Made by a program: the position numbers and the translations under genes. The notes under the pieces are model-generated. The model searched no databases. It was not told where the DNA came from and saw only the letters and a list, made by a program, of their open reading frames with translations. 64,000 nt of DNA from Vairimorpha necatrix (lineage: Eukaryota), in assembly GCA_036630325.1 (NCBI GenBank), contig CP142727.1, positions 868,001-932,000 on the forward strand. Reading direction: 5' to 3'. Positions 3,236 to 64,000 of the stretch are shown piece after piece. Positions within the stretch are counted from its first letter, which is position 1. Each line of letters starts with the position of its first letter.

Positions 3236-3272
3236 TTCAACTTCTTTAACACCGAATATGCTTTTTTCAAAG

Positions 3273-4598: not shown

Positions 4599-4604
4599 GT
4601 CATT

Positions 4605-5622: not shown

Positions 5623-7467
5623 TTGGAGCAAAAACAAGAAGAAATATTCTTTAGAGTATTGGACAAATACACAACAATTAAAATAGCCGACCAAAAACTT
5701 AAATCGGCATTATTTGAAGAAATTATACAGTTCCTAGTAGACCTTGAAGAAAATATTTTAGCACAGTCAACAGAGACAAGTCAACGTGCTGTAAAAGACA
5801 TAGGATTTACCAAAACTACAAATAACTTCACAAGCAAGAAATGGTGCAAGTATCATAACTCCAAATTCTATAACACCAAAGATTGTTCGCTTCATAAGAA
5901 CACCCCATCTAATAATAATAAAAATCTTATTATATTGGAACAAAAAACTGATAGTCATGAAGGCATTAAAATCAATGGGGAAATTAATGACACTATGTTA
6001 CAGTTATTCGTGGACACAGGGGCTACATGCAATTATATACATGAGAACATTGTCAATATATTAAAACTGCCAATATTTGAAACAAACCCCCTTACTATGG
6101 TATTCGGCAATGGCACAAAAGAAACAACTAATAAGATAGTCGAATCAAGATTAGATATCAGTGGTAGAACATTCTTGATAAAGTTTTATGTATTACACAA
6201 AATTCCAGAGGATATAATTGTAGGTTATGAATTCCTCGCGGCAAACTCGCAGTTGTTAAACATTAAAAAGAAAATTATTATTGTGGACAAAGGAACGATA
6301 ATTCCATTCATTGGCTCGAAAAATCATCAGAAGAGATGCTAGATGAAGTATTAGCAGAAAATACTTGTCTAACCATTATTAACAAAATTTTTCATATTAA
6401 GGGGGCAGATAATATTGCTGCGGACTCCCTATCGCGATGCCTCATATCTCAGGCAACATCGCTAAAAGTAAAGTATGATAATGCTGTAAGAAGAGCTTGC
6501 GCGTCAAACAACGACGCGTTACAAATAAATGACAAAGGTAAACTAATAGTTAAATATGACAAGATCAAGTTCGTTGCTTAAGACTATACACAAAATATCA
6601 GGACACCGAGGGGGTTCAACGCTCTATAACAATATAAAAAATTATATTTACGTTAAAGATGCTCTGAAGAACATAACAAAAACAGTCCACAAATGTAACA
6701 TCTGCAGAAACTATAAGATTATTAATAACAAGAATCAACAAGAAATAAGAATGAACTCCGGCAAGCTATACGAACGAATCTCAACGGATATTTTTGGGCC
6801 TTTCTAATATTATACACCCATTCCTAATTCCGAAAAGAGGACAGGATATATCTTAACAATAACAGATATATATTCAAGAGAAACACACTTAGTTTTTTAC
6901 AAGCAATTAAGACACAAGAACTTATAGACGCCGTAGAATATTGGATTTCTAGTAGAGCAAAACCAAAGCATTTGATCTCAGATAACGGACGGCAATACAC
7001 CTCAACCGACTTCACTAATTACCTTACGGACATGGATATAAACCATATTCTTATACCAACATATACACCAAGATCCAATGGTATATCAGAGAGAATCAAT
7101 CAAACCATTACTTTTATCATATCTATTAATAAATATAGAAATATTTACGACACCGTCAAAGAAGCAGAGAACACTTTAAATAACAATTATAATCGAGGTA
7201 TTGAACTTCACTTATCTCTTAACGCACAAAAAGGATTTCTTCGATATCGAAAATAAGCTTCAAAACTTTAGAATAAATACAAAGAATTTATCATACACCC
7301 CAAAGTTTAAAGTGGGAGATATAGTATATAAGCGAAATCTAAAGGCAGGAAAGCTCGATCGTAAGTATGGACATAAACAAAGCATAGAAGAAGTTGGAAG
7401 TAAAGGGAATTGGGTTCGCCTAAAGAATGAAGAATCTTGGACGCACGTCCGAAACCTAAAGTGCTAG
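5623..7467 (+). pseudogene. Degenerate gag-PR / integrase of element A
   Basis: WCKYHNSKFYNTKDC and LFVDTGAT, then directly HIKGADNIAADSLSR (end of RNase H region), DIFGP, ISDNGRQY, SERIN. Several frameshifts, and RT is absent. Confidence 0.88.
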
Positions 7468-7831: not shown

Positions 7832-8131
7832 TTTTCAATAAACAATTTTATTTTTTTTAATATCACAGATTCGATTTTTTTTCCTTTTGTGAGTGTTTCC
7901 GGTCCAATTAAATCTGTCGATGTGTAGAGACATGATTTGATAGAAAAAAGGGGCTAAAAGAATGCAAATAAAATTCAATTAAAAAGTAAAATTTGAATCA
8001 ATTTCATAATATAATTCGATCACATGTTTGACGTATAAATTAAATCTGTTTTAACTTAAATTATTTTGTGATTAAAAAATTTGTTAAATAAAGTGGGGGT
8101 TCAATATATTTTCAAGTTTTCATCCTTTAAT

Positions 8132-9751
8132 ATGAATGAATCTGATGAAGAAGATTTACTAGAAAAGGACAAAATTAAAAAGATATCATTAGCAACGCTA
8201 GATGATGAATTTAGTGAAAATAAAGAGACGAAGTTGTATAAAATACGAAATAAATCTTATGATATTTTACAAAAACTTGATTCCATTACACCTTCCAAAA
8301 TAGAATCAGCACTTCAACATGTTAAGTTACTCAAAAAAGAGATGGGCTTAAAATATCCAGCTTTGTTTGATGCAGACCCCATGATCATATTTTGTCATGT
8401 AGATCTTGATTCATTTTACGCTAGTGTGGAATCATTGGAAAATCCCGAATATAAGACAATACCTTTAGGCGTTGGTAATATGAACATGCTCGCTACTTGT
8501 AATTATGTAGCAAGAAAATATGGTATAAGGGCTGGTATGCCTGGATATATGGCAAAACAATTATGTCCAACTCTTAAGATAGTTAAATGTGATTTTCAAA
8601 AATATAATTTTTTCAGTGAACAAGTTATGAGTGTATTGTCAATTTTTGATGAAGAAATTGAAATTTATGGAATTGATGAGGCATGTTTGACATTTGATGT
8701 ATTGAAATTTAAAAATTCGGTATCAAAAATGAACATGATAGGGTTTAATATTTCATTATTAAACAAAGAAGATAAAAACAAATTTCAATTTAAAGAATAC
8801 TTTCATGATCGTTCTGTTTATGTGCCAATGACATCTACGAAGTTTAATTTTATAAACATTAAAAAATTAATAGACAATATTAGGCATTTAGTATTTTTAC
8901 GTACTGGTCTTACAATATCGGGGGGAATTTCTGTGACAAGGGGATTGAGTAAATATGCATGTGGAATAAATAAGCCCAATGGATCTTTTGTAATTGATAA
9001 AGATTTTGATGGTCATATTTTGGATTTAGAAACTGATAAAATTAATGGTATCGGTTCTGCCACTAAAGAATTTCTTGCAAAGTCTTATAAAATTAGAACT
9101 ATAAGGGAACTTAGAGATAACCTACATTTTCTATATCTAACTATGCCTTATAAATCATTTAAAAATTTGTTTTATTTATCATATGGTCTTTCTATATTTG
9201 ATTTTAGTGATAGAACAAATAAGTCAAGACAATCTGTCGGCAAAAATGTGACATTTAGATCCACTATTGATCATTCTGAAATCTGTACAATTCTATGGCG
9301 TTGTTGCACTTCGTTAAGTGATAAACTCAAAATGAAAAATATAAAATGTAATATAATAACACTAAATTATAAAACGTCTAATTTTAGTAGTAAAACTAAA
9401 CAGATTAAATTAAACAAGAAGATCAATGAAGATATTGAAATTTTTAATGTTGGTTACGATTTATTAATGGACAGTAAGCTTTTAACAACTAATAAAAATA
9501 TTCTTAATCCTATTAGACTCTTGGGCATAACTCGTAGTGGTTTTTCAAATGATGATAGCAACGGACTGTCTAAGTTCCTCGGATCTGTATATGAGAAGAA
9601 AATTTGTCCAGTCTGCAAAAAAGCATCCTTACATTTAAATAATTTTTTATTTGAGAGCCATGTCAACAGTTGTATAAATGCTCAGCAAACTGAAGAGACC
9701 AAGCGTAAAAGCACACTTGACGCATATATAAAGAAAAAAAATCGAGAATAA
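8132..9751 (+). CDS. POLK: Y-family DNA polymerase kappa / DinB homologue
   Basis: HVDLDSFYASVE, ATCNYVARKYGIRAGMP, GIDEA, NKPNG, INGIG (HhH), IRLLGI, C-terminal UBZ-like CPVC...HVNSC and PIP-like TLDAYI. ATG 8132 is preferred over the TTG at 8081. Confidence 0.92.
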   Translation: MNESDEEDLLEKDKIKKISLATLDDEFSENKETKLYKIRNKSYDILQKLDSITPSKIESALQHVKLLKKEMGLKYPALFDADPMIIFCHVDLDSFYASVESLENPEYKTIPLGVGNMNMLATCNYVARKYGIRAGMPGYMAKQLCPTLKIVKCDFQKYNFFSEQVMSVLSIFDEEIEIYGIDEACLTFDVLKFKNSVSKMNMIGFNISLLNKEDKNKFQFKEYFHDRSVYVPMTSTKFNFINIKKLIDNIRHLVFLRTGLTISGGISVTRGLSKYACGINKPNGSFVIDKDFDGHILDLETDKINGIGSATKEFLAKSYKIRTIRELRDNLHFLYLTMPYKSFKNLFYLSYGLSIFDFSDRTNKSRQSVGKNVTFRSTIDHSEICTILWRCCTSLSDKLKMKNIKCNIITLNYKTSNFSSKTKQIKLNKKINEDIEIFNVGYDLLMDSKLLTTNKNILNPIRLLGITRSGFSNDDSNGLSKFLGSVYEKKICPVCKKASLHLNNFLFESHVNSCINAQQTEETKRKSTLDAYIKKKNRE

Positions 9752-17692: not shown

Positions 17693-20600
17693 ATGTTTTG
17701 TTCCAACAATTTAGCGACAAGCGACAAAAATATTTCTTTCATCTTCAGAAATGAAGAGAAAGACGACCCAGGCAGTTAATAGAGGACTTGATGGAAGTGG
17801 GCAGGTTGAATGAACACAGCGAGGGTATGCTGTTACTTACATTCAAGATGTCTCGTAGGAAGGAGGCAAAAAATTGGATAATGGCCCAACCAGAGGGCTA
17901 GACTTGGGTGAACTAATAGATTTGTTTAGAAAGAGATTTGTTAGTAGTATGATATTGAAGATCAGTTTGGGTAAACTAGCAGCATTGAAGAATACAGGTG
18001 GATCTATCCTGAATTATCTCGACAGAATGGGGGCCATGGCGAGGAAAGGAAATGTTCCAGAACAAGTCCTGGTAGCGTTTACATTGAATGGTCTGCCGAA
18101 TAATCTTGCTAACATCGTGCTTATTAACTACAAAGAAGGCCTTACGTGGAAATACATCTATGATTCTTTAAAGAATATTAAGGATACGAGACAGACTGAG
18201 CGAAACCAGATAGCATCTCCATACTGCCCAGAAGTTACAGTCGAAGCAATAAGAAACAAAGTTAATAATAAAAAAATCAAGCTATCCAAAAATTAGATGT
18301 TTGATCTGTAGCGAGCCAGGACATGTGGTCTTTCAATGTCGTTTCAACAGTTTAAAGAAAAGCTCTAAGGTGCAGAAACAAGTCAGAGAGGTTAGTATAC
18401 CACAAGGGAATGATGAGATAGATGTGGAAGAAGAGGACTTAAATAAATTCATTTTTAATTATAGGTTATTAAATAGCAGAAGTCCCCGATCCACTGTTAA
18501 GTTGGCTACACTTGAGGACGTTAAACGGCCGTTTAAGGTATTATTAGATACAGGTGCAGAAGTTAATTTGCTCAGGCCGGAACACTCAAAGACAAACAAG
18601 ATTGACTAGAGAGAATCTATAATTACGCGCGGCCAACGGGTCAGATAAGAATCATAGGAAAAACGATGCTGAAAATAAAGATAGAAGGATACGTTTTTGA
18701 AGACAAATTTATTGTAACACGAGACATCACCATGCCGTGTATAGTAGGATGTATATTATTGGACAAGTATGAAGTTGACCTAAGATTTGGAAATGGAAAG
18801 GTTAACATGGAATCAGGACAAATCCTTAAAAGAAACGCAATTGGATATCATAGGATTAACACAGGAGATAGCGAACCAGACATGGCTCAGCTATATAAAT
18901 TAGGCGGAACGAAAGAAAAAGAGGCATCTAAAATAATAAAAGAATACCTTGAGCTGGGAGCGATACAGCCAAGTGAGAGTGCTTGGCGAAGTCCAGCGTC
19001 GTAGTAACAAAAAAAGATGGAGGTTACAGATTGTGTATAGATTACAGTCGTCTTAATGATATTACGATTCGGAATGCATACCCCATGCCATGAGTGGATG
19101 AGTTTTTTGATGCACTAGAGGGTGCAAGTTATTTTACTAAAATGGATGCCGAATCGGGATATCACCAGATCAATATGGCACCAAAGAATATTGGGAAGAC
19201 GGCCTTTGCATGCAGAAAAGGATCTTTTCAATTTGTAAAGATGCCTTTCGGTCTAGTAAACAGACTAGCCACATTTCAGAGAGCAATGAATAACATACTG
19301 AGAGATTTTTTATACAAATTCGTGGTAGTTTATATGGATGATATCCTGGTCTATAGTAGAACGTTCGAGGAACATCAAGCGCATGTTAAGCTGGTTATGG
19401 AGAAGTTAGTAAATGCAAGAGTAAAGCTGAATGAGAAAAAGCGTGAATTTAAAAAGAAAGAACTGAAAATCTTAAGGCATATAATCTCAAAAAAAGGATT
19501 GGGGATTGACACTGAAAGAATAAAGAGTTGTAAGGAATTGCCGATACTAAGAAACAAAAAGAAATTAAAATCATTGTTGGGGCTACATAATTACTGTTCG
19601 AAATTTATAAAAGACAGTCATAAGATAGTAAGCCCATTGTATAGAATTATTAAGTTGAAAAGAAAGAGGAAATCAAATTTTGGAAAAAGGAACCAGAAAA
19701 CAGGCAATTTATCGAAGCCATAGAAGCGTTGAAGGCAGCTGTCAATAAAGCGACGTTTCTGACAATCCCAAATACGAGAGGTGAATTCATTTTGATGATG
19801 GGCGCGTCAAATGAAGGAATTGGAGCCATGCTATCCCAGGTAATAGAAGAAAAGGAAAAAATGGTAGTATATTTAAGTTTTTTATGCATGAAAGCGAAAA
19901 AAAATTATTCTACAATAGAACAGGAGCTTTTGGCAGTAGTCAAAGCATTTCAACACTTCAGAGAATATCTAATGTTAGGGGAAATCCCATTCCACACGAA
20001 CTATCAAGCTTTAAAATATCTTTTAAAGTCAAGGAATATTAAGGCAAGGTTAGCGAGATGGTCGCTTCTTCTTCAGGAATATGATTTTACAATTGAGTAT
20101 ATTACTGGACCCTCGAACTATGTAGACCATCTAAGTAGAGACTTCAAAATAGAAATGAAGAACATTGAAACGGTAAGCCCCGCTGAAGAAAGGAAAGTTA
20201 TAAAAAGGGAAAGGGGGGGATAGAATTGGTCAGATTTTACCACGATATGTTGGGTCATGGCTTAAAGCAAAATATGAAATATAACATGAGACTAAATATG
20301 AATGGAAGGAAATTAACAAAGATATAGATCAGTTTGTAGAAAACTGCGAAATCTGTCAACAGAAAAGAGAACAAAAACAATTTAAAGATTTTGCACCGTT
20401 GGTGGCAAACAACATTGGAGAGATTTGGAAATTGACATAGTAGGACCATTTAAGTAGAGTGAGGACGGGTACAGGTATCTTCTGACAACAATAGAACATT
20501 TCCTAAAACCTGGGGAGATAATCCCGATCCATACAAAAGACATGAATTCAATAATGTATATAGTGGACAGATACATCATAAAGAAATATGGAATTTTGAA

Positions 20601-23139: not shown

Positions 23140-26100
23140 TTTGTAAATAGCAATGATGGTGCTCCTCCCTGCAATATATTTTTGATTATTATTGTCCTGT
23201 ATCACAGGAAGTTTCTTGAATTTAAAATAATTGTTTAAAATACTTTTATATGAAGGGTAAAAATGAAGAAGAAGGAGCTGAACTAAAAATAGCTGAAACA
23301 ACACCAGCAGCACCAAACAACCAAAAAACATACGATATAAACTCAGTATCATTAAGTACAGAACCGGGAGGACCCAAGAGGTCTAACAAGTTGGATTCTC
23401 TAATGGCCGTTCTCAGAGAAGTTGAGGGTGCCAAGTATGATTGGCCTAGGAAGTCTTTTCAAGCCATTATAAGTAGATGGAATCAGATGCCAAAGGGAGG
23501 ATGGAACAAAGTACTAGAGTTCTATTGTGCAAAATTTAAGGAAAAAATATCTATCGTTAGAATAAAGAAAATGGCGCAAAAAGCACATGAAAATGAAGCA
23601 GGGACGCTTACAAGAGTAAGAGAGTTTAAAGAGGAGAATACAACTAAAAGAAGAAAGACTTTGGACGAGATTGCAAGAGTATGCACCATAAAAGATGTAG
23701 AGCGACAAAATGAAATAGATAAAAGATTTAAAGAGATGTGGACTAAAATTAAAGATGCAGACGTTTGCTCTGTACAAAAAACAAGAAAGATATCTTCTTT
23801 AAAAGCTAATTATGAAATTATAGAATCTTTAAATTTAGTGGCTGGAAATTTTTTACTAAAGAATAAAGTCAATAATATGAATGATATTGTCAAAATTATC
23901 TAAACAACAATGGGTGTATCAAGAGATAACATGTAAAGGAATCAAGAAAAGTGTTTGGAAAGAAAGTATTGAAGATAAAATAAACGCAATGGAACAAAAG
24001 AAAACGCTTTTTGATAAATGTAAGTTTGAGAAAGATAAGATAACTGAGGAAGAGAAAAAAGCCCTAAGAAAATGCATGAGGGAAAGAAACTTAATACTTT
24101 CAAAAGCAAATGATGTTATTAAAATGGAATTATACCTTAAGGAGAGGATCTTGGTATACAAGAAGAAGATAGAAGTTTACGAGAAGAGAAAAGCATATAG
24201 AAATGAAAATACAAAATTTGAACTTTACCGTGGAAGATACTACCGAGACCTAAATGCAGAGGAGAAGAATAATCATAAAGTTGGGAAAAAAGAGATTGAA
24301 GATTTCTGGTCGAAAATGTGGGAAAATGCAAAACAAGAAACACTGGAGAATGAAGAAGAATACCTATGGAAATACAAAATAGAACAGCCCAGCATCAATG
24401 CTTTCCCGACAGAAGAAGAGTTTAAAAATATAATAGGATGGCTGCCCAACTGGAAAGCAGCAGGTCCAGATAGAGTCTATAATTTCTTTATAAAGAAAAT
24501 GTCTTGCCTACATGGATCTCTTTACAAAGTAATTAAGAAAATATGCCCGGAGAGTTATACGGAAGAAGAATGGTTTTACAGAGGAATTACTTATCTGATA
24601 CCTAAAGGGCAACCAGTGGAAGGAAAAGACTTTAGACCCATTACATGTATGTCTAACTTGTACAAACTTACAACAAAATGTATTACATACGTACTCCAGG
24701 AACTAGTGGAAAATAAACTCTCTTTTAGCAGATAACCAGATGGGAACAAAGAGGAAAGTCCGGGGAGCTAAAGAACAGGCAATGACAAATAACATGCTGA
24801 ATAGAGAATTTAATTATAAAATCAAAACGGCCTGGATAAATGTTAAGAAGGCGTACGACTCAGTAAGACATGACTATTTAATATAATGCATTAAAGCTCT
24901 GGGACTACCAGAGTGGATATGTAAGACAATAGAAATACTGCCCAGCAAGTGGAATCTAGAAATATTTGAAGGAAATGAGAAGATCATGGAAAAGAAGGCC
25001 AGAAGAGGAATATTACAAGGAGATAGTTTGTCCCCGTTATTGTTTGTGCTGTGTATAGACCCGTTAAGTCGTAAATTGAATAGTATATACCCCAAGTTAA
25101 GCATCCCGCTGGGAGAACAAGCATTTGTAACTAACCATTTGTTGTTTATTGACGATCTAAAAATACTTGCGGAAAATGAGGAAGTATTGAAAGAGATGAT
25201 AGATGAGACAAGAAAATTCTTTAATACTGTAGGTCTAGAAATCAACGCGGAAAAATCGGCTACAAATAGTATAAGGTGTAAAGATGAAGGCAAGTTGCTA
25301 GAGGGGCATGAGGGGTATAAATATCTGGGCATTACAGAAAGCCACGAAGGTAAGATAATGAAGGAAACAAAGGAAAAAATATTGAAGGCCATCTTATTAA
25401 GAATCGAAAAGTTATGTAAGACTAAGCTGAATGCGAAACATTTGTTTAAAGCAATCAATGAACATGGAATAAGCCCAATAAAATACTATATAGGAATAAT
25501 AGATGCTGAACCAGAAGAATACAAGATCATAGACGACAACATCGGAAAATTATTGATTAAATATCACGTCCATCAACAACCTGCAACCAAAGAAAGATTA
25601 TATCTCTCCAGAGCCGAACTTGGATTAGGGCTCCAATGCGTAGAACATAAAGTGAAAGAATGCTTTTACAACTAGCCAAAGAATTTGAAAGCACGAAAGA
25701 ATCTGTTCTAAGACGCAAAGCGATTTTCCACTCCGAGAAAACTGGCTACACATATCTATCCATTATAGAAGGATATATAAAAGAGAAATATAAACTTAAG
25801 GAAAACGTAACAGCTAAAATATTAATAGAGGCACAAACCGAATCTCTTTATAGCGATATAAAAATAAAAACAAACCATTCAAAGCTATTTAGACCAAGAG
25901 ACGATCCACTTATTGATATAAAACAGGCTGCCACATGGCTCACAAAAGGAAATATGAGCCCGAGAGAGAATCGCAATTTATTTGCATTACAGGACCGAAA
26001 TATTTTCTTAGAGAAACGGATAAAATGCCCACACTGCCATGAATATGCAAAGACAGTAGATCATATGGCCACCCAATGTGATCGTATGCTTTCACATTAT

Positions 26101-31353: not shown

Positions 31354-33312
31354 TTAAAAACATTCGTCTATTATCAATTTCAGCTGAGAAGAATGTCGCT
31401 TAATAGTTTTGTTTCCTGTCCTCACCAGATATGTGTTGTTTTCTAAAACTTTATAAATTAAACCTCTAACCTTAAATTTGGGTTCTCCCTTTTTGACACC
31501 TGTTTCCGTTTTTATAATAACGCTATCCCCCTCTGAAAATTGTGGTTCGGTTTCTCGATTTTTATTTCTTTCATTGAATTTTAGTATCTCCTCATATTGT
31601 TTTTCTTTCACCTTTTGGAAATTGGTCGGGTTTAAAGCATCATTCGGAGACATACCTAACTTACTATGATATATATTGTTATATACATCTAAAACCTTTA
31701 AAAGTTTAATTTTAAGATTTTCTTTTCCCTCTTGTTTGTATATTCCTTCTTGTATTGTCCTATTAAATCTTTCCACTCTTCCATTGGACTGGTGGTGAAA
31801 TGGTGAGGTATAATGTAATTCGACATTATTACTTGCTGCCCAACATCTTACTTTTTTACTTAGGTTTTCTTTCGATTGATCTAAAATTAGTTTATGTATC
31901 TTAATTTTTTGATTTATCATATCTAAAAATCTTACAATTTTCTTACTCTCCCTGGAACTTAGTACCTTTCCAAATCCGAATCGACTAAAGTAATCAATCC
32001 CAGACACGATATATTGGTTGTTGATTGGACCAATAATATCTATTGCTACTTTCTCACCAATTGCATGTGACTTTACAAATAAAATTTTTTCCCCTCTTTT
32101 AGGATTATACATTTTACACCGAATACACCTCTTTAACTCGTTTTTAGTCAATTTTTCCATATCTTTCCAATCGTATTTCTTTTTAAGTTCATTTTGAACT
32201 GCTTTATAACCTCTATGGACAAGTTCTAGGTGTTTATCACGGATAATTTTTCTTTTGTCTTCCTCAGTCATTTCTAATTCTAGATTTTTAATCTCTAATA
32301 TTTCTTGTCTTGGTGATCTGGATAAGCAATCCACATGTGGAATGTTTGTTCTTTTTCTATATACAACACAATAATTATATTCACTAAGTTTGTCTAACCA
32401 TCGTTGGATCCGCAAAGATTTTATCTCTCCCCTATTAAGTGCTTCTAGGGCCTTATGATCAGTGACTGCAGTAAATTCATTTCCATAGAGGAAATATCTG
32501 AAATGTTCCATCCCCCATAACATCGCTAAACATTCCTTTTCGCTGATTCCATAGTTTATCTCAGCAGGTAACAATCTTCTTGAAGCATAAGCAATTGGTA
32601 CTGGACCACTTCCATGATCCTGTAAGGGGATAGCTCCTATTCCTGACTGGCATGCATCTGTTTCCAAAATATAAGGTTTTTTGTAATCGGGTTGGGATAG
32701 AACCACGCGTGATCTCAATATACTTTTTAATTTCTTAAAAGCTTTTTCTTCTTCATCTTCCCACTTAAATACAACATCCTTTTTAAGTAAATCATACAAT
32801 GGCCCGGCAATGATTAAACATTGTGGAATAAATTTACGATAGTAATTAATCAATCCTAAAAATTCCTCACAAGATTTTCTATTATTTGTTCTTTCTATAT
32901 TTTCAATTCCTTGTTCAGCCGAAAATTTCGGCTTTATCTTGTTATATTCAATAACATGGCTTAAAAATTCTATGTTCTCTTTTTTATGTATAGTCTTTAA
33001 CTCGTTAATTCGTAGCTCATATTTTTGTAGCTTGTTAATAACCTTTGTATAGCTTGTATCATGTTCTTCTTCATTTCTACCAAAAATAAGGATGTCATCA
33101 ACATAGACAAAGCAATTTTTCCCTATTTCTTCTTCAAGGACGTTGTCCATAAACCTTTGAAAAACGGCTGGTGCATTTTTAAACTTCATGGGCATTACGT
33201 TCCATTCGTATAATAAATGATTAAATCTGAAAGCAGTTTTGTGTTTGTCTTTTTCAGCCAATTTAATTTGAAAAAAACCATCTTTTAAATCAATTTTTGA
33301 AAAATATTTCAT
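31354..33312 (-). CDS. pol: pol (RT, RNase H, integrase) of the short-LTR gypsy; upstream part frameshifted
   Basis: KIDLKDGF, YVDD, LETDAC, EKECLA, TDHKAL, DIIGP, IDYFSR, VERFNRT. Confidence 0.9.
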   Translation of the reverse strand: MKYFSKIDLKDGFFQIKLAEKDKHKTAFRFNHLLYEWNVMPMKFKNAPAVFQRFMDNVLEEEIGKNCFVYVDDILIFGRNEEEHDTSYTKVINKLQKYELRINELKTIHKKENIEFLSHVIEYNKIKPKFSAEQGIENIERTNNRKSCEEFLGLINYYRKFIPQCLIIAGPLYDLLKKDVVFKWEDEEEKAFKKLKSILRSRVVLSQPDYKKPYILETDACQSGIGAIPLQDHGSGPVPIAYASRRLLPAEINYGISEKECLAMLWGMEHFRYFLYGNEFTAVTDHKALEALNRGEIKSLRIQRWLDKLSEYNYCVVYRKRTNIPHVDCLSRSPRQEILEIKNLELEMTEEDKRKIIRDKHLELVHRGYKAVQNELKKKYDWKDMEKLTKNELKRCIRCKMYNPKRGEKILFVKSHAIGEKVAIDIIGPINNQYIVSGIDYFSRFGFGKVLSSRESKKIVRFLDMINQKIKIHKLILDQSKENLSKKVRCWAASNNVELHYTSPFHHQSNGRVERFNRTIQEGIYKQEGKENLKIKLLKVLDVYNNIYHSKLGMSPNDALNPTNFQKVKEKQYEEILKFNERNKNRETEPQFSEGDSVIIKTETGVKKGEPKFKVRGLIYKVLENNTYLVRTGNKTIKRHSSQLKLIIDECF

Positions 33313-34571
33313 GTCTCTAGGACTGAATATAAGTCTTTCAATATTGGGGAGGGATAATTATCTAGATCTACCAATCTGTTGAGCGCTATCAAATTCGTAG
33401 TAACTCTTATGAATCCATCCGGTTTGATCACTGGCCTAAGGTTATTTAGCCATGTTGAATTTGATTTCTTATATACCCGTTTTTTAATAACTCATTTATT
33501 GAGTTTTGTATTCCTTCCTCTAATTTCTTTGGTAAACTATAAAAGTGTTCTATTACCTTCTCTCCTGGTTTTGTATTGATCTCACAAATTCTATTGCTGG
33601 TTGTCGAAAAACTTTACAAATATCATTTTTTCCTATTAACATTTTAAAATTTTTAACTTTAGGTAAAACATACATTCTGCTTTTAAATATTCTATTACCA
33701 TATTTGTATTCCACAATAACATGGTTTTCAACTAGAAATTCTTCTTCAAGACATGTGAAAAATTTTAAAACATTCATATTCTTATTGAGTTTCAATTTTA
33801 AATCATAGACAGCTTGAAGAGAGATAAAGTTGTAGGCCGCACCCGAATCAAAAACCACGGGGACTTTTTTAGTCCCAACATAAATAAAATTATTTTTATT
33901 CGTAATAAAGCTTTGATCTACTTCCTGACTATCCTTTTCAATCTCATTAATATTCCTTCGATCATCATTAGCCTGTTTATTATTTCGATTCACCCTACAA
34001 TCCTTAGCTAAATGTCCTGGCTTTCTGCATCTAAAGCATGTATTTGGTTGTTCTGTTTAGTAAGTCTTAAACCAGCCAACTTGATATTCAATAATGCTTC
34101 GTTCTCCATCTCATTTAATATTTCGTAAAATTCTTTGTTGATCTCATATTGGGTCGTAAGAAAAATTTTAATCATTTTTAACTTTTTATCTACTCCTGAT
34201 CTAATAATTTTTCTTCTGTCAAAATTGGAAATTTCATTTTCATTACATTTAGAAACTACATCTTTGATAAAATCAACATCTTTTGTTCTTCCTTTTGCTT
34301 CATATTGTAAATGTCAAAAAGCAATGTTTTATTCTCAAATTCTTGTTCCACTTCTTTTTTCCAGATTTCAAACGTTAAAGCAGCTTTCCTTTTTATCTTT
34401 AAAAGTCCTACAATGCCAATCTAAAATATGAGAGTTAAGTCTGCTTATAAAAAAATCTAACTTCTCCTCATTGGTCATTTTTGCCCAACTACTCAGAGCC
34501 TCTGCTCTTCTAATTTCTACTATTATATTGTCTTTGTTTATTTCGTTTTTTATATTCTCCACCATAAACAT
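33313..34571 (-). pseudogene. Fragmented gag/protease/RT N-terminus
   Basis: MFMVENIK starts in the LTR. CFRCRKPGHLAKDC knuckle near 34000-34040. VFDSGAA protease motif in 33553-33993. Confidence 0.85.
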
Positions 34572-51857: not shown

Positions 51858-53078
51858 GGTTAAGTTCTCGACTTACCCCCCCACCCCTAAAAAAAATAAA
51901 AAAAAATAAAAAAGGGGGGAAAAATAAAAAAAAATAAAAAAACGTTTAATTCTCGACTTAACCCCCCTTACCCCCCAAAAAAAACAAAAAAAATTATTCC
52001 ACAATTGTAAAGTCTATTTCAGGAATAATATCATAAGCTACAATACTAAAATTACCTATTTGAAAAAATTCTAACATTTTATCCAATAGATTTTCACGAT
52101 ATATTAATTTGAATCTGTTAATGTAAATCTTTCTTACAAGATTCATAATAGTACCATGACTAGTTCCTCCTTTTCTTAGTTCTCTTTTAATAACCGACCA
52201 CATTCCCTCTATAGTCTGAGTATGCGCACCAGTTATATTATCAACAAAATTTTGGCTGTGATTCACAGTCAAATGTAGATACTCATATTCTACACAGATT
52301 GTTTGAATATCACAATATCCACGCCAACAATCTGTCACAATTGTGGTCCCCGGAGCAATTTTTCTTGTAATTAATTCAACAAGAGTAGCTCTTGTTCTAT
52401 TTTCTACGATCTCAAAGAAAAAAGAATTTGCATCCCCTCTCACAACGCCTCCAACTGCCCATACTTGATATTGAAGAACCCTTCCCGCATGGTTTTTACT
52501 TTTTACAAGTAAAGTTTCATCAATTTCAACAATACAACCGACGCCGCCAATCGTTTGATTGTTTATATATGTTGAATAAGAGACGTACACGGCGTTATTA
52601 AAACGCGTAAACCATCTTGATACCGTACATTTACCTATATCAAGTTCTAACGTGGCGGCCAAATTACTTGAACCCTTTACCCATTCGCAAAGCAATATTA
52701 AAAGATCCTCAATAGGCAATTTTGAGTTCTTAAAAACGCTTTGTTTCATTATGGTTCCTTTGTTAGAACATTTTTTACCATCACGCCTTGAATAACAACG
52801 ATAGTTTTCAGTGTTGGTCCGATTTTGAGTCATTGGTATATTGCATTTATTGCACATAGGGACCCTCAAAATGTTTTTTGCAATTAAAAATTGCATTAAC
52901 TCATTTTTTTTATAGATGAGTTTTCTAAATTCTTTAATTCTCATTATGGGTCAAATTTTTTATTTCTTTTATTTTTTCCCCTTTTTTTATTTTTTCCCCT
53001 TTTTTTTATTTTTCCCCCCTTTTTTATTTTTTTTTATTTTTTTTAGGGGTGGGGGGGGGGTAAGTCGAGAACTTAACC
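51858..53078 (-). mobile_element. Merlin DNA transposon, apparently intact
   Basis: TIRs GGTTAAGTTCTCGACTTACCCCCC extending into mirrored A/G-run subtermini. Perfect 8-bp TSD TTTTTCTA. Uninterrupted transposase. Confidence 0.95.
51994..52944 (-). CDS. Merlin / IS1016-IS1595 family DDE transposase, 316 aa
   Basis: N-terminal CxxC..C..C, IGG.G.IVEIDET, WAVGG, VTDCWRGY, VNHSQNFVD..TGAHTQTIEGMWS. CCC-ATA-ATG start context. Confidence 0.93.
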   Translation of the reverse strand: MRIKEFRKLIYKKNELMQFLIAKNILRVPMCNKCNIPMTQNRTNTENYRCYSRRDGKKCSNKGTIMKQSVFKNSKLPIEDLLILLCEWVKGSSNLAATLELDIGKCTVSRWFTRFNNAVYVSYSTYINNQTIGGVGCIVEIDETLLVKSKNHAGRVLQYQVWAVGGVVRGDANSFFFEIVENRTRATLVELITRKIAPGTTIVTDCWRGYCDIQTICVEYEYLHLTVNHSQNFVDNITGAHTQTIEGMWSVIKRELRKGGTSHGTIMNLVRKIYINRFKLIYRENLLDKMLEFFQIGNFSIVAYDIIPEIDFTIVE

Positions 53079-54960: not shown

Positions 54961-56426
54961 TTTTAAAATGTTGTATGTACCTTTCTGTAACATTTATTCC
55001 TTATTATTTGTACCCCTCAATTTAAAATAAATGTTTACAGACAATAATTTGGCGGCAACGAATGAAAAATTGTTTGGGATAACGTCTAATGAGAGGACAG
55101 AAGATGATCCTGATACTTTTTTGAAGACTTTAAGATGTTATGCAGGAGTATATAATAGAGGAGTCAACTCTTATTTGTATTTTTAGAACTGCCTAAGAGG
55201 GGAAGCGAAACTATGAGTTGAGACAGTGCCATTTATGTGTGGATCTGAGGAGCTGTCTAGTTTAGTTTTGGTGATATTTGAAGGGTAAACGTCGTGCGTG
55301 AGATTAATTAAGGAAATGGCTGGGACAAAATTTCAAGGAGGTCTATTATGAGCTATTTGGACAAAATAAATGGTTGTCGCAACGTGCCAGAACATTAGAG
55401 GATGTTCTGATGGCGTTTGTGATCAACGGATTACCAGAAAATATAGGAAGTACGATCATGTTAAATTTTCCGGTAAAGTTGTCGTGGTCGTACATATATA
55501 ATATTTGTAGTGGGCTGCAGTGGCGGAAGATATCAGCTGAGGGTACTTACCCCAATGTACTTGAAGTTGATGCAGTTAAGAATACAGAATTTGCGTCTAA
55601 ATTAGGTAATATAGGGACACCAGAGACAAGCAAGGTAAGATGTTTTTATTGCGGTAAGTTAGGTCATATCAAGAGACAATGTTTCAAATTTTAGAAGAAA
55701 ATTGCATCCATTATGGAATCTGGCACGAAGAAGAACGGGGAAAAGGAAGTGGAAGATAGATTTAATAAAAGCAATTTAATTTAATTTAGAGCTATGGAAG
55801 CTGATGTGTGTGCATTAGACGCGTTCCCGATAGTTCATATAAACGATGAGAAAATTGGTTATAAAGCGTTGTTAGATTCGGGTTCTGCGGTAAATGTAAT
55901 TTGTAGAAAATAAAACCGGAAAGGTTAACTTTATGGGTACTGATGTGGTTTTAAATTCGGCAGGAGAAGATAAACTGGGTGTTTAAGAAAAGTTTAGGTT
56001 GTCCTTCTGGTAAAATGATACATAGTTTACTGAAGAATTTATTGTTGTTACTAAAATGGGTTATGAAATAATTTTGGGAAGACCGTTTTGGAAAAAGAAC
56101 AAACTGACATTATCATGGAAGGAGGGATTTAAGGTCTATAGTATTGATGTGTGTATAAATAAGTTGGGAGAACATATAATTAACACAGGAAATGCTGCTC
56201 CAGTTGTGACGACGATATATAGGAATGGTATGTCATTAAAGACTGAAATTAAGAAGAAAATTAAAGAGTATTTAAAACAGGGAATTATTAAACCCTCTAA
56301 GCGTTCATGGCGGAGTCCGGTGGTAATGATTGTGGCGCGCGAGCGTTGACCCCCCAGCAAAAAAAAAAAAACATAAAAAAATAAGATATAAAAAGAACAC
56401 AAAAAAATTTTAAAATTGAATTTTAA

Positions 56427-57726
56427 TTAAAGTTTTTTAAGTCTCGACATAGAGAAAATTTGAGTTCCTTCTTCAGTTTTACATTTCACTCTGTTGTTTG
56501 AGAGAATTTCTATAATCTTAACTTCTTTAGAAAAAAATGAAGATAATTTTAGTTTTTTTGTTTTGATATTATTATCAAAGTCTTTAGCTACAATGACTTT
56601 GTCACCAATTTCAAAAGTATATTTTGAGATATGAACTAATGAATGACGATCCATTCTTGCAAGGTAATTTGGATCAACTGAACCAGTTTCAGTTTGCTCA
56701 TTAAAAACACTATTCGACAAATCTCTTTTATTTTTTGTCTTGAGTATCATTTCAATTTCTTTTAAGCTATCATCTGAAGACTCGTTCTCATCTTGCGTAT
56801 AGACAGAATTGAATCCTGGTATTCTTAAGAATAAATTAAACGGGACCTGCTTTGTCGCACTATGTTTGGCCAAATTGTAGTTGTAAACTACTTTATCTAG
56901 ATGTTTCAGCCATTCCTTTTCTTCTTCAGTTTTAGAATTGTCAACAGCTAACAAATTTCTTCAAATACATGTTTTTGTATTGTTCGCGTTAAAGTTTGGT
57001 TAAACCTTTCTATTTGCCCGTTTGATTGTGGGTGACGGAGCCTACTATGTTTTTGAACAATAAAAAGGTCGGAACAAAGGTTATTTATATGGGAATTGCA
57101 GAATTCCTTTCCATTATCGCTTTGAAGGATCTTGGGCGGACCAGTCATATTGTAAAATAAAAATTTAAGGTTTTTTGTAACCTCATCACCTGTTTTACTT
57201 TTCAATGGAAAGGCCCGGGCAAACTTAGAATACACATCTATTATTGCTAAAATCCAACAATATCCATCGTTAAACCTTTTATAGCGTGTCATATCGATTA
57301 AATCGATCATAATTCGTTCCATAGGTTTAGAGGCCGTAATATGTACTTGGCGCTCTTTATTTTTTAACGGTTGTGATTGTCCACATGTGATGCATTCGGA
57401 AACGATTTTTCTTATAATGTCCCTAGGAATTTTAAAAAAAACCTTATTGCATGATGCTTCGAATCGGTTAACGCCCCTGTGATGAAGCTGGGGGAAAGCT
57501 CTACATTCCACTTCCATGGCCTCAAGCTGTTCACTATGAAAACCCTTGAGGTGGTTCCCATTAGCCTCGTCCCTTAAATATAGCGCCCCATCTATAAGAA
57601 GGTAATTACCAGCTTTTTGTTTCAACCGTTTTTTTGTTGCTTTTCTAAAACAACTTCATTGTCCCTGCCTAGTAAAACTAATTTTAAATTACTGTATTCA
57701 CTAGCATTTCTGGGAGGAAGAATCAT
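56427..57726 (-). pseudogene. Integrase-like transposase of G (two frameshifts)
   Basis: Start CCCCTTAAAA-ATG at 57726. HHRG...CITC, IDLID, IIDVYSKF, LQSDNGKEF, NGQIERFNQT, YN...HS, IGDKV tail. Confidence 0.88.
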
Positions 57727-57809
57727 TTTTAAGGGGATAACAAAAATCTTTTTATTTATCAATTGTTATTATGTAAGTATTTTCTTATTTTTTATTTCGT
57801 TTTATCAAG

Positions 57810-57881
57810 TATGCCATGGTCGAGTGGTATGCTGTTTGTTTCTTTCACATGATCCGCGGGTTCGAATCCAAACAAGTGCGT
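57810..57881 (+). promoter_or_regulatory. Degenerate tRNA-derived sequence retaining Pol III A and B boxes, inside transposon G
   Basis: A box TGGTCGAGTGG at 57817-57827 and B box GGTTCGAATCC at 57859-57869, at tRNA-like spacing. Stems do not pair into a full cloverleaf. Confidence 0.7.
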
Positions 57882-57928
57882 TTATTTATTTAAAAAAGAT
57901 TTAACTTAGACACTGCTTTCTGAAAGGA

Positions 57929-58114
57929 GGGGTCAACGCCCGCACGGGATGTAAATCCTAGCGGTCAACGCCTGCACGGTGTTGCATTTACTAGGGGTCA
58001 ATGCTTGCACGGGATGCAAATCCTAAGGGTCAACTCCTGCACGGTGTTGCATTTACTAGGGGTCAATGCTTGCACAAGCTGGAAATCCTAGGGGGTCAAC
58101 GCTCGCGCGCCACA
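57929..58114 (+). repeat. Subterminal tandem array of six 32-33-bp units, each starting with the TIR core GGGTCAA
   Basis: Alternating unit types (..GGGATG.AAATCCTA / ..GGTGTTGCATTTACTA) form a 65-bp higher-order repeat, ending in the TIR. Confidence 0.9.
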
Positions 58115-58228: not shown

Positions 58229-59333
58229 CGCTATAGGGCCTATTCCCGGGCAATGAACGTAAAAAAGACGGCATTTCCCGGGAATAGGCCCTAAACTGGG
58301 AAATTTTTACAACCCCTAAAAAATGAATAATTTTGAAGAAGAACCAAGAAATTCGAGATCTGACATTTTTTTCAAATGAAGCAGCCATGGCCTTTATTCA
58401 AAGGCATGGCTTACTTAAAGAATTTAAAACATGCACGAAATGTTATGAGAGCATGGTTTTGAAACATGATATTTCTTATTCGAACGGTTTTCGATTCAGA
58501 TGTATAAATTATTGTGTAGAAAATCCAAATCAGTTTTTGAGGGGCTAAAAATTTCAAGTCCAAAGATAGACACAAGCGAATACTTATTTATAATATATTC
58601 ATGGTTCAAAAAAAATTATGAATATAATATTAATAAAAATACTTCGGTTTTCTTTAAATACTATAAAAAGAATTAAAAGGAATATTATAGAAGTAATAAC
58701 TGAAGATAATAAGAATATATGGAAGAAATTGGGGCCAGAGCACCTAATACAAGTCGATGAGAGTGTTATAATAAAAGGAAAACTTATTAAGTCACCATCT
58801 GAAATGTATGATTCAATTAGTAAAGCTACTTGGATAATTGGCGCAGTAGAAGAAAAAACTAGAAAACTAGTTCTTAAAGTTTTACCAAATAGAAAAAAGG
58901 AAACATTCTTCGACTTTTTCTCTACAAATATTAGTCCCATGTCTGTAATAAAAACAGATGGGCACAGATCCTACCCATACGCTGTTGATGGGATTGGCGG
59001 AGTACATAAAATCGTGAACCATGAGGAAGGATTCACCAATGCTGATGGAGACCACACTAATTTAATAGTATGTGAGTGGTCTCATTTCAAATCGGACATC
59101 AAAACGAGGAAAAGAATACCAGGTTAAGCAATGCCAGAGTATATAGAAGAATATGTTTGGAGGAGAAGAAATTTAAAAACTCATGATTCCAAAGCCTATA
59201 AAGACGCCCTTTTAACTCTCTTAAAACTTTTGGTTCGAAATAAATAATTGGGGTTTCCTTTTTTTTTTATAATTTTTTTGTTTAAAGGGGGGACCTTTAA
59301 ACAAAAAAATGCCCGGGAATAGGCCCTAGAGCC
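58229..59333 (+). mobile_element. Merlin DNA transposon, disrupted transposase
   Basis: TIRs (C)GCTATAGGGCCTATTCCCGGGCA / TGCCCGGGAATAGGCCCTAGAGCC. Motifs IQVDES, WIIGAVE, KTDGHRSY, VNHEEGF..GDHTNLI..EWSHFK. No TSD. Confidence 0.88.
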
Positions 59334-60092: not shown

Positions 60093-61056
60093 GGATCAGG
60101 TACCCTACGTCCCCCGTAAAAAAAATAAAAAAAAACCCTAATAATTTAATAAAAGCTAAGAATTTATTTCCAATAATGCGTTCCCCAAACATAAACTCAT
60201 TTAGAAAGACTCTTCTTTGTTCTAATGTCAATCCCTTTCGAGATTTTATTTCCATTTTTAGTTTTTTGTTATAAGATTCCACATGTTGAATATGCACCCC
60301 GTAATAGGATCAACAAAATTGTTTTTATGACACACCGTTTTATGTTCATATATATTGGAGTGCACTAAGGCACAATAGGCCTTCCACTCATCTGAATGTA
60401 TGATACTGCCAGATCGTACTACATTATAAATTATAGGAATTAAAGAAGCAGAAGCTCTAGATTCTACAATTGTTACAAATCCTAATGCAGGCCTAAAAGA
60501 AGTGTCTACAATACATACACACCAACAAGGGGGAACTGATCTACCTCTATGACTTTTTACATTAAAATTTAATTTTGTTTCGTCAATTTGAACGATTACA
60601 TTTGGACCTTCAAGTTTGATTAAATTTAATACAAAATAATTATTTTCTGTATTTTAATCAGCGGTTTTTTACCGATCCCAAAATAGTCCATAATTTTATT
60701 TAATTTCTCATTTTTGGAAAAGAAATAAATAGCTTTTAAGATAGTTTTGAAATTAATTTTAAAAGCTGAAAACAACGACTTGTGTCGTATTGTCAAGGTT
60801 GTTTGATAGTGTTCGCATTTATAATTAAAACATCTGCACTTTTAATACTTTTTGTGATACGCATATTAAATAAGCAATATAAACAGGGTTGTTCATCTTT
60901 AATGAGCTTCCACTCTAATAAAAATTGTAAGATACAATTTTTATCTGCATTAAATATTTCTTCCAAATCCATTATACGCATAAAAATGGGGGTATTTTTT
61001 TATAGAATAAACAGGTACCCTACGTCCCCCGGCGGGGGACGTAGGGTACCTGATCC
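60093..61056 (-). mobile_element. Merlin DNA transposon, degenerate transposase
   Basis: Perfect TIRs GGATCAGGTACCCTACGTCCCCC. 8-bp TSD GAAAAATC. Remnants GPNVIVQIDETK, IIHSDEWKAY, GVHIQHVESYN. Confidence 0.92.
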
Positions 61057-61136
61057 GAAAAATCTAAGCATATATTGTCACAGTTAGTTGGTGGAACCAG
61101 TTAGTAGAGGGAACCCTAAAAAAATTTATAAAAAAA

Positions 61137-61172
61137 GACCCCCGTGGGAATCGAACTTGGGACTTCTCGAAG
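61137..61172 (-). promoter_or_regulatory. tRNA 3'-half-like B-box segment in the left TIR of H
   Basis: Reverse complement CTTCGAGAAGTCCCAAGTTCGATTCCCACGGGGGTC followed by a T-run. Confidence 0.6.
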
Positions 61173-61311
61173 GAATACAATCACAATGAACGACTTTTTT
61201 GAACGGTTCTAAATTTGTCCTAATTATATTATGGGGTATATTTCGAGTAATTTTATATAAATTTGGAGGGAAAAGAAATAAAAAAATAAAATAAACAACT
61301 TTTTTAAAAAT

Positions 61312-62691
61312 TTATTCGTTATCAAGCAATCTTAGATCTCTAGTGTAAATTTCTTCTATAATAAGCAATGGATCAGCCTCTTTAGATAATTTTACTTTAT
61401 TAAATTGAAGTATATCCATTACAATATATACATCGACATCCAAATGTTCGTATAGAGGAAGCCTTCTAGTACTTTGATTATTGTCTAAATATGGTCTTAT
61501 AAGAACCCTATCTCCCAATTTATATTCATAAAAGTCATTTCTCCACATACTTCTTTCAATCATTCTATTAGCAGCATTTTGAGTATTAAACCGTGCAGAT
61601 TCGTAGTAAATTTCATTTAAAAAAAGATTTTCATTGTTTAAAGCATATAGTTCTTCGTAATTTACGACGTTATTTTCTTCAAAAACAAATTCTTCTCTTC
61701 GTTCTTCTTCCTCATTTTCAACTTCGTTGTTATTTGCAACCGAATCTATTATATCAGTGATTCTAGATTCTTGCATTATGTCTTTAATGGGCTTACCAAA
61801 CATTAAACTGAATGGAGTTTGTTTAGTTGTTATTTGCCTTAAGTTGTTATATGCCCAGGTAACTTCTTGGCGTACTATGGACCATTGCCCTAAGATATTC
61901 TTCGACCTCAGAGAAGATGCAATCATCCATTTTATTGTTTGATTGCATCGTTCTATCTGTCCTTGTATCTAAGGACATCTAGCTCTTCCTCTTACATGTC
62001 TTATTTCATACTTTACACATAAATTCACGATATATTGATTAACAAATTCTCTACCGTTGTCGGTATGAAGTATAAAACAAGATCCAAACGTATTGAATAG
62101 TGTTTCAAAGGCATCACGCACACTAATGCCAGTTTTGTCACGCAATGGAACCGTCCAACAGAACTTGGTAAATGAATCCACTACGTTAAGTAACCATTTA
62201 TACCCATCATTGAGTTCGTGATACAATCGAAGATCAATCAAATCAGCAATATACCTTTCTCTAGGATATTTTGAAATGATTGGTCTAATAACTGGTCTAG
62301 TTATTAGGTTTCTTCTTGCTTGACAAATATCACAACTTTTCAAAACTCTCAGTACTTCGTTTTGAGTAACGTCGTATACTTTTGATTGTAACAATGGATA
62401 CAATCTGTCACGCCCAGGATGTCCATTAAAAACATGAATCAGTTTGATGAAATCCGGTTTGAAACGCTGCTCATTGGTTGTAAAGAATCTCAATGATCTA
62501 TATTGATCTACTTTAAACCTCACAATTAGTTCAAAACTTCCATTGTTATTTTCTTCAAACAACATGAAACGTTCAGCTTTTCTTTTAAAATTTTTACGAT
62601 CAACTTTGTCCAACAACGTTGGTGGCAGCTGACCATATAATAAAAAATTATAAACTTCTTGTCTTTTATCATTGTCCATTTTTATTCTCAT
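61312..62691 (-). pseudogene. Integrase-like transposase of H (one in-frame TAG at 61969-61971)
   Basis: H..GHPGRD...CDIC, ADLID, VVDSFTKF, LHTDNGREF, P*IQGQIERCNQT, YNN, LGDRV tail. The two ORFs are in frame. Confidence 0.9.
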
Positions 62692-62791
62692 AACCCCACA
62701 AAACAAAAAATTATTTACTAAAAATTGAAGGATAATGTTACTGTATTTTCTTAATAATATTTTTTTTCCTTTTTTAGTAAATTTTGTTTTT

Positions 62792-62832
62792 CTTCGAGAG
62801 GTCCTGGGTTCGATCCCCACAGAGCTCTTTTT
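62792..62832 (+). promoter_or_regulatory. tRNA 3'-half-like B-box segment in the right TIR of H
   Basis: CGAGAGGTCCTGGGTTCGATCCCCACAGAGCTC-TTTTT. T-arm TGGG-TTCGATC-CCCA pairs. B box at 62807-62817. Confidence 0.7.
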
Positions 62833-64000
62833 AGGGTTCCCTCTACTAACTGGTTCCCTCTACTAACTGCGACATATATTATCCAAATTGAAATGTGTAT
62901 GTCAATTTTGTCTTAAACACTTAAAAATTGAAAAAAACATGTCTATAGATATCTGAAATACTATACTGTTAACAGGAACCAAAAATAACGCAAATATAAT
63001 AAACTTATAATTTAAATTTTACTAAAAGATACTGTTAAGACATCAATTCGGCATATACGACATACTTTCAAATATATTTCGGCTTCTAAATTGACAGTTC
63101 TTTTATTACGACAATGTTTTTTTTATTTAATGTATACTGTTTTTTATATCAAAGATATAACCAATAAAGTCTTTTCAAATATATGAATGACGACAATTCT
63201 CAGTTTGTTGCTCATACAAATAATTTAAAATAATATTTACCACGGGACGTCAATGTAATTACTGAGATTAACCCATGATCACTTCTTGTAGATACTTACT
63301 TAAATTTTTTCTCTTTAAATATTTACTGTAGCTAATTCTAAATATTTTACATATTTAAAACTATGATAAATAACGAGGAGCTAAATTATGTAACAATATG
63401 TATTAAAAACATGATTTGAGCAAAAATAAAGGAGCTAATTTATATGTTGGTTCTTAGACTCTGCAAACAATAACTAATGTAAATCTTATTTTTTAACATC
63501 TTATTAAACTATCAAAAATAAAGAATTCGCTTCTTTTGCATGTATAATTAAAGTACAATAGGCGGAGATACTCTCAAATAAAACGTGCGATGGTTACAAA
63601 GCTTGAGATTTATTTATTTGCTATTAGTTTTCACTTTTTGTTTATATTGTCTAAGCATTGCCCCATTTATTGTTTTGAAGTTTGTACACTAACAACACTA
63701 AGTTTTATGAAGAAAATCAATTGGAACTGAGTCTTATGTCCCAATGAAAAAATATAATGATCCAAAGAAAACGATATGCAACAAATTTATATCAAGAATG
63801 CGGATATTGTATTTTTGTCCCTTTTACAAAACAGAGGAGAAAAACAATGATATAGCATTGGTTTAAAATTCAATTTAAGTATATTTAAAGCAATGATAGA
63901 ACAACATAGCTTAAGTAACATTGTTTTTATGTTTTCTTGGTATTATAGATGTTGTTGTTTTATGTAATTCTATCTAATATTAGTAAAATATGAACTTTGA

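Follow-up and report, generated by a model that had tools for sequence, protein, structure and literature searches.

A putative Ginger2/Tdd-type transposon of Vairimorpha necatrix with tRNA-gene-like segments in its terminal inverted repeats

In yeasts, extra-TFIIIC (ETC) sites, or orphan B boxes, act as chromatin boundaries, and the tRNA-derived heads of short interspersed elements (SINEs) keep their A and B boxes while the cloverleaf decays. Among the DNA transposons, Ginger2/Tdd elements have been described by a transposase resembling the gypsy integrase, TGTNR ends, terminal inverted repeats (TIRs) of ~50-180 bp, a 5-bp target-site duplication (TSD) in TDD-4/5 and the absence of a reverse transcriptase (RT); Ginger1 elements by a 4-bp CCGG/CCGT TSD and a length of 2.6-7 kb (both in Bao et al. 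2010, PMC2836005). In the literature searched, Ginger2 elements of microsporidia had previously only been counted by protein domain (PMC5751038). A stretch of 64,000 nucleotides of the microsporidian Vairimorpha necatrix (contig CP142727.1, positions 868,001 to 932,000; hereafter the window, whose own numbering is used throughout) was analysed. It was found to contain an integrase-only transposon, element H, in which each of the two inverted ends holds a segment resembling the 3' half of a tRNA gene, and a second such transposon, element G, with a tRNA-like piece at a comparable place.

Judged from its sequence, H is probably a cut-and-paste DNA transposon of the Ginger2/Tdd type in a microsporidian host. 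It resembles the described members of that group in the integrase-type transposase, the TIR length, the TGTNR termini, the 5-bp TSD and the absence of RT, and differs from them in its length of only 1.8 kb, in its microsporidian host and in the apparently tRNA-gene-derived module within the TIR. An assignment to Ginger1 was rejected, the TSD being the 5-bp, AT-only TATAT and the length 1.8 kb. GingerRoot, another integrase-related element with TIRs, likewise bears part of a host gene; its TSDs are of 6 bp (PMC6839031), whereas H has what appears to be half of a tRNA gene built into the TIR itself, and this recurs in a second family. An earlier, sequence-only reading of this DNA had called H a Ginger-like integrase transposon, a view borne out by the integrase domains, the TIRs, the TGTNR ends and the TSD. 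The same reading mentioned, with reservation, tRNA-derived TIRs in some animal Ginger1 elements; this precedent was not supported, 'tRNA' being absent from the main texts of PMC2836005, PMC6839031 and PMC3575427. No description of tRNA-derived TIRs or of B boxes in cut-and-paste transposons was found in full-text literature searches, which covered main texts outside supplements and subscription journals. The word 'tRNA' was also absent from the main text of a survey of microsporidian transposable elements, and no mention of Ginger was found in PMC4202319.

The anatomy of H was read directly from its ends. The inverted arms (61076-61122 and 62828-62874) are 47 nt long and 91% complementary, both termini fit TGTNR, and the TSD is of 5 bp, as 4-bp or 6-bp readings gave mismatches. 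The 18-mer CAGTTAGTAGAGGGAACC had four matches in the window, every one of them at the ends of H, against none expected. These units are spaced by 17 nt and overlap by one base. Two 18-bp units per end had been proposed earlier, and four units do stand at the ends, but the outer left one carries three mismatches and the spacing is 17 nt. Aligned with each other, the ends of H remain alike, apart from a 14-nt indel in an A/T run, as far as about column 105, where the likeness ends; the TIR is therefore ~100 nt long, with the tRNA-like segment as its inner third. The notion that the terminal 17-nt units are decayed T-arms was also tried and rejected, since their local alignment was no better than that of shuffled sequences (p 0.27).

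Both tRNA-like segments of H are 33 nt long, correspond to the variable loop, T-arm and acceptor, and are directly followed by an oligo-T run. After the variable loop and a T stem with four of five pairs, the right segment goes on with the T loop TTCGATC, an acceptor strand of 7 nt, a single base and TTTTT; it lies 104 nt upstream of the integrase ATG and is divergent from the integrase. In the left segment only one of the five T-stem pairs remains, as read from the sequence. The two segments are identical at 25 of 33 positions, and seven of the eight differences are transitions. Thus the outward-pointing tRNA 3' halves with B box and T run, which had been reported for both TIRs, were confirmed down to the quoted segment strings.

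The microsporidian B box has been given as GWTCRANNC and the A box as TRGYNNANNNG (PMC5499648). The former consensus was found as GTTCGATCC in the right and GTTCGATTC in the left segment, so that the B box noticed before holds at both ends in this form; as GGTTCGANTCC, on the other hand, it is never exact in H, one mismatch being present at either end. With up to one mismatch GGTTCGANTCC occurred three times in the window, always within H or G, where 1.2 would be expected, and three was also reached in 16 of 100 shuffles; GWTCRANNC was counted 17 times, the expectation being 18.65. By itself, then, the B box does not exceed chance, and the other loose matches in the window (1315, 21380 and 36979) stand without tRNA context. 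In contrast, a strict B box with TTTT 9-16 nt further on occurred once in the window against 0.01 expected. A 20-mer from the variable loop and T arm of the right segment, with three positions made two-fold degenerate, was also searched in a viral-contig collection. It was found at 119 loci, where ~1 match was expected by chance (an estimate from the collection size), and of the 150 tRNAs recognised there by ARAGORN 101 carried the pattern. Its start in these 101 tRNAs always lay 29-32 nt from the tRNA 3' end, and in H it lies at a matching distance, 28 nt before the T run (28 nt plus the discriminator). It is the composite of T-arm half and T run, not the B box alone, that is above chance, and the inner TIR segment of H is predicted from this likeness to derive from the 3' half of a tRNA gene including its terminator.

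As to the isotype, the 20-mer-bearing tRNAs were mostly Pro(TGG) (36), Thr(TGT) (20), Lys(TTT) (11) and Met (9), together with others. A CGAGA context upstream of the pattern was present in four tRNAs, all of them Pro, while the best identities over the full 33 nt were to Met(CAT) (29/33), Thr(TGT) (28/33) and Gln(TTG) (27/33). Of the Pro/Ala look noted at first sight, the segment could weakly be called Pro-like, the CGAGA context speaking for this and the best full-length matches against it.

No tRNA cloverleaf was detected: ARAGORN gave none in the 64-kb window and Rfam none at the gathering score. A relaxed ARAGORN run on the window returned 24 calls, which were judged to be noise and of which none fell on the three tRNA-like segments of H and G. 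Rfam searches of the window, of 57-64 kb and of the half-segments likewise yielded no tRNA, the only match being a 3.7-bit tmRNA T-arm (E 2.2). The RNA folds of the three tRNA-like stretches were no better than those of shuffled sequences (z 0.11, -0.49 and 1.10).

Element G provided the second instance of this arrangement. Its end arms are 34 nt long and 94% complementary, including seven flanking bases with the TSD; ATGAT stands on either side, and 4 bp or 6 bp did not fit. The insertion lies in a gypsy RT gene and cuts it cleanly in two: on the right, KKKEEGWRMCIDYRR continues the ..SPVVMI of the left flank (the left side was read by eye). The integrases of G and H are 35% identical over 168 residues, and the two elements lie ~3 kb apart. 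In the tRNA-like piece of G the A box is separated from the B box by 42 nt, which is tRNA spacing, and a T-rich stretch comes next; the piece lies upstream of the integrase, is divergent from it and points to the near end of the element. An A box and a strict B box at tRNA spacing were met in none of 1000 simulated windows, and the sole such pair in the real window is that of G. No tRNA fold or cloverleaf was found in this piece by ARAGORN, Rfam or folding, and no intact stems were present. At the other end of G no tRNA-like piece was found.

H and G share one order of parts, namely the terminus, repeats presumed to be transposase sites, a T run, an outward tRNA-like piece, a spacer of ~80-100 nt and a divergent integrase start. 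The spacers between the ATG and the module aligned between H and G with a score of 21, whereas 942 segments drawn at random from the window gave 12.0 +/- 2.4 and 0.2% of them reach 21; the 3' parts of the modules scored 11 compared with 6.6 +/- 1.4, and 0.9% reach 11. Within H, the segment on the integrase side (the right one) is better kept than the left one. The presence of a piece at only one end of G would link the module to the side of the integrase rather than to a pairing of the ends.

More distant relatives were represented by 80 metagenome loci (258 kb) with 25-38% integrase identity, eight of which had TIRs around the integrase. ARAGORN found no tRNA in these loci, and GGTTCGANNCC was counted three times in the 258 kb against an estimated ~2 by chance. 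One TIR-flanked element (locus L007, 2124-5079), with an integrase ~31% identical, has TIRs of 150 nt in which CAGTTAAT/AACTAG units are repeated, and a TATA duplication of 4 bp. Its first bases, TGTTG, precede two repeats that contain CAGTTAAT and lie 18 nt apart, just as in H the terminal TGTCA precedes two CAGTTAGT units 17 nt apart. Since the terminal design is the same in both, the outer units are likely transposase sites, and since L007 has its terminal repeats without a tRNA-like part, the tRNA module would be an add-on to such sites. At another locus (L057, 300-340) a string resembling a tRNA 3' half was seen on the opposite strand, ~1.3 kb upstream of an integrase relative, and no TIR was recognised around it.

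The integrase frame of H matched rve (3.3e-12) and Integrase_H2C2 (6.2e-6) in Pfam and nothing else. No RT or RNase H domain was found in this frame, the only one scanned; the other open reading frames of H have at most 71 amino acids, and 1.8 kb is too short for an RT. The start is placed by us at the ATG at 62691, because the N-terminal MRIKMDND would then align with MKIKLDNN of the relatives; GGGG stands 2 nt upstream of this ATG. The gene is interrupted by an in-frame TAG. In this column W was present in all 13 aligned homologues that cover it, and other copies of H have T>C at 61970, giving TGG, in two public sequencing runs, in both of which the H family is multi-copy (X1, 416/416 depth, six contigs; X2, 65.1/68.4, four contigs). 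The copy in the window therefore carries a private nonsense change of TGG to TAG in an otherwise intact family. For the same reasons, a ciliate code for the TAG was rejected; lists of open reading frames under table 6 are uninformative in such AT-rich DNA.

The mobility of H was evident from run X1, in which three further contigs run out of the element at 61073-61076, each into a different AT-rich flank; counting the window copy, at least four insertions thus share their left terminus. At 61295-61432, close to the end of the integrase gene on its 3' side, the summed X1 contig depth was ~3000, compared with 335 elsewhere in H, and this piece may be shared with a far more abundant repeat; as evidence, differences in contig depth and stretches lacking contig coverage were given no weight.

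The best named relatives of the H integrase were from Dictyocoela, Vairimorpha and Nosema (50-60% identity), and relatives were automatically named KRBA2-like or SCAND3-like. The integrase domain of KRBA2/SCAND3 is reported to derive from GINGER2 (PMC3575427). No integrase relatives were found in the viral-contig collection. An integrase tree against Ginger1, Ginger2/TDD and gypsy had been suggested by the sequence-only reading. The tree built here had 32 rows, comprising 18 translated stretches (H, G, two gypsy integrases of the window and 14 chosen metagenome loci) and 14 whole database proteins, none of them a named Ginger1, Ginger2 or TDD sequence. H grouped with microsporidian proteins (support 100/99), and H, G and the TIR-flanked metagenome elements formed one group apart from the two gypsy integrases of the window (90/91; the gypsy sequences are on long branches). 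Two 'KRBA2-like' proteins of Octopus sinensis (P0009 and P0013), ~40% identical to the H transposase, clustered, together with a protein of Dictyocoela, among the microsporidian sequences; they could represent horizontal transfer or parasite DNA in an animal assembly.

Table 1. Features of elements H and G, in window coordinates.
Feature	Coordinates	Strand	Remarks
Element H, integrase-only transposon	61076-62874		~1.8 kb, one broken integrase gene
H, left TSD copy TATAT	61071..61075	.	direct reading
H, right TSD copy TATAT	62875..62879	.	direct reading
H, left TIR, outer part	61076..61122	+	TGTCA terminus and two 18-nt units
H, left outer 18-nt unit	61081-61098		3 mismatches
H, left inner 18-nt unit	61098-61115		exact
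H, right TIR, outer part	62828..62874	-	units 62835-62852 and 62852-62869 exact; terminus read inward TGTCG
H, left tRNA-gene 3'-half-like segment with T run	61130..61169	-	segment 61137-61169, seven-T run 61130-61136; points outward; B-box core 61148-61156
H, right tRNA-gene 3'-half-like segment with T run	62795..62832	+	segment 62795-62827, TTTTT 62828-62832; points outward; B box 62807-62817
H, integrase/transposase gene	61312..62691	-	H2C2 zinc finger and rve DDE core; in-frame TAG 61969-61971
Element G, second integrase-only transposon	56331..58114	-	TGTGG termini, 27-nt TIR, 5-bp TSD ATGAT
G, integrase frames	57655..56951 and 56960..56430	-	split near 56955
G, tRNA-like piece	57810..57880	+	71 nt; A-box match 57817-57827, exact GGTTCGAATCC 57859-57869
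G, subterminal tandem repeats	57928..58102	+	5.4 x 33 nt; between tRNA-like piece and right terminus

We propose the following course of events for these elements. By analogy with the family, the most likely binding sites of the H transposase are the terminal units with CAGTTAGT; the enzyme would cut at the TGT...ACA ends, insertion proceeding through a 5-bp staggered cut. The tRNA-gene 3'-half module would sit, facing outward, between these units and the presumed integrase promoter, and may have been copied to the other end of H when the TIR was extended to ~100 nt, the left copy being a by-product. The module would act as DNA and not as RNA, providing a portable site of the TFIIIC/TFIIIB type beside the divergent integrase promoter and possibly keeping that promoter open or insulated at any landing site. 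A role at the DNA level is suggested because the box motifs are kept while the stems decay in the left copy of H and in G. An RNA role is opposed by the lack of a cloverleaf, by folds equal to those of shuffles and by the lost T-stem pairs, when the B-box consensus is nevertheless kept in both copies of H. H resembles the ETC sites in that a B box is present while an A box and a transcribed tRNA are lacking; it differs in that the candidate site, a B-box motif, lies inside a mobile element. G is similar to the SINE heads in its kept boxes, and differs as a cut-and-paste DNA transposon, for which a Pol III (RNA polymerase III) transcript is not a transposition intermediate. We infer both the binding of factors at the module and any effect on expression from these features. 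That the module is a DNA-level site for Pol III factors near the integrase promoter is our leading reading, held tentatively. The wider proposal, that microsporidian Ginger2 transposons carry a portable Pol III promoter piece of tRNA-gene origin (a B box, and in G also an A box), that it recruits TFIIIC/TFIIIB-type factors beside the transposase promoter and so supplies each insertion with its own insulator, open-chromatin site or divergent promoter, and that selection keeps the boxes as the tRNA structure decays, must be considered rather doubtful.

Several observations weigh against a kept DNA-level site or speak for the module being a neutral passenger, i.e., a fragment of a host tRNA gene captured in a non-essential stretch, copied by TIR extension and now decaying, an explanation nearly as likely as the leading one. 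The two segments of H are identical at only 25/33 positions, compared with 91% for the outer TIR. T-stem pairs have been lost on the left, and GG has changed to AA at 62806-62807, just 5' of GTTCGA, in the left copy and in one diverged right-end contig. In that contig three events per 33 nt were counted in the segment and 15 per 210 nt around it, which is about equal (among 40 of the 196 variant rows). No match to the A-box consensus TRGYNNANNNG was found in H at a distance of 30-60 nt before the B box, in agreement with the sequence-only reading, and no module of T-arm plus T run was found in the 80 metagenome loci, including the eight flanked by TIRs. The related GingerRoot transposons are reported to bear gene fragments often (PMC6839031). 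Of TFIIIC, only Tfc1 and Tfc4 are reported to be detectably conserved in eukaryotes including Encephalitozoon (PMC1540719), so that a B-box-binding TFIIIC subunit is undocumented in microsporidia within that source. What neutral decay explains poorly is G: at 35% integrase identity it agrees with H in where its piece lies and which way this points, and it retains both the A and the B box although all stems are gone. The H and G spacers, too, align better than 99.8% of random window segments, which is unexpected for neutral DNA at such divergence; the alignment scores were, however, obtained post hoc in AT-rich sequence and are only suggestive. None of the eight left/right differences and four variant sites (the latter among 40 of the 196 rows) fell on a specified B-box position; the chance of this is ~7%, and it was not counted as evidence.

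Other explanations were regarded as having less weight. The integrases of gypsy type in some retrotransposons use Pol III factors for targeting, and, in the reverse of such Ty3-like tethering, occupancy of the B boxes in the two TIRs by a host Pol III factor could help the integrase in finding or pairing the ends or in targeting. The presence of the module inside both TIRs of H, with the TIR likeness running through it, fits such a cofactor site and the end-pairing role conceived at the outset, which is weakened by G having its piece at one end only; moreover, L007 has the outer units in common with H but not the module, the four insertion flanks are AT-rich and show no tRNA gene in the 30 nt viewed, and ARAGORN found no tRNA gene in the 64-kb window. 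Such a cofactor site is thus considered improbable. A fossil primer-binding site from a long terminal repeat (LTR) retroelement ancestor, which had been put forward earlier, would account for the position and pairing of the segment, since the strand read inward complements the 3' end of a tRNA and follows immediately on a terminal repeat of the TG...CA type, and H is indeed similar to LTR primer-binding sites in this respect. Primer-binding sites, however, measure at most ~18 nt, whereas the complementarity in H spans 33 nt and reaches beyond the T loop as far as the anticodon stem, lacks TGG (the complement of CCA), adjoins the complement of an oligo-T terminator and occurs at both ends in inverted, not direct, repeats. 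Because of the missing TGG, the 33 nt and the abutting terminator, the source would be a tRNA gene or an unprocessed transcript rather than a mature primer, and the fossil primer was abandoned as very improbable. An equally slight chance was given to a fortuitous resemblance in a G+C-richer patch of the TIR: the B-box matches alone are at chance level and Rfam gave no significant tRNA match on the half-segments, but the strict B box with T run (1 against 0.01 expected) and the 20-mer (119 loci against ~1, in register in 101 of 150 tRNAs) contradict it.

Much of the window is transposon-derived. Ty3/gypsy pol genes (protease, RT, RNase H and integrase), mostly broken, were found at 1571-6342, 19094-20223, 24887-25675 and 31354-34056, and frames of the Merlin/IS1595 type (DDE_Tnp_IS1595) at 51994-52950, 58594-59127 and 60258-60653, two of them being fragments. 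The only G+C-rich perfect or near-perfect palindromes of the 64-kb window, at 58234-58293 (22-nt arms, 95%) and 61012-61052 (20-nt arms, 100%), bracket a stretch with Merlin-type transposase fragments; the former lies 120 nt beyond the right end of G and the latter 24 nt beyond the left end of H. An intact host gene for DNA polymerase kappa is located at 8081-9751, with the top named relative in Vairimorpha bombi (54% identity), and its relatives from 54% down to 36% identity were all microsporidian before other eukaryotes appeared.

The present analysis documents complete, recently active elements of probable Ginger2 type in microsporidia. If the module should prove to be a neutral passenger, it would be a modest curiosity. 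Retrotransposons seek tRNA genes as safe landing sites, and if the leading reading is true, a DNA transposon that bears pieces of a tRNA-gene promoter in its own ends would represent the reverse of this strategy. It would then also offer a simple system for the effects of Pol III factor sites on nearby Pol II genes within the reduced transcription machinery of microsporidia.

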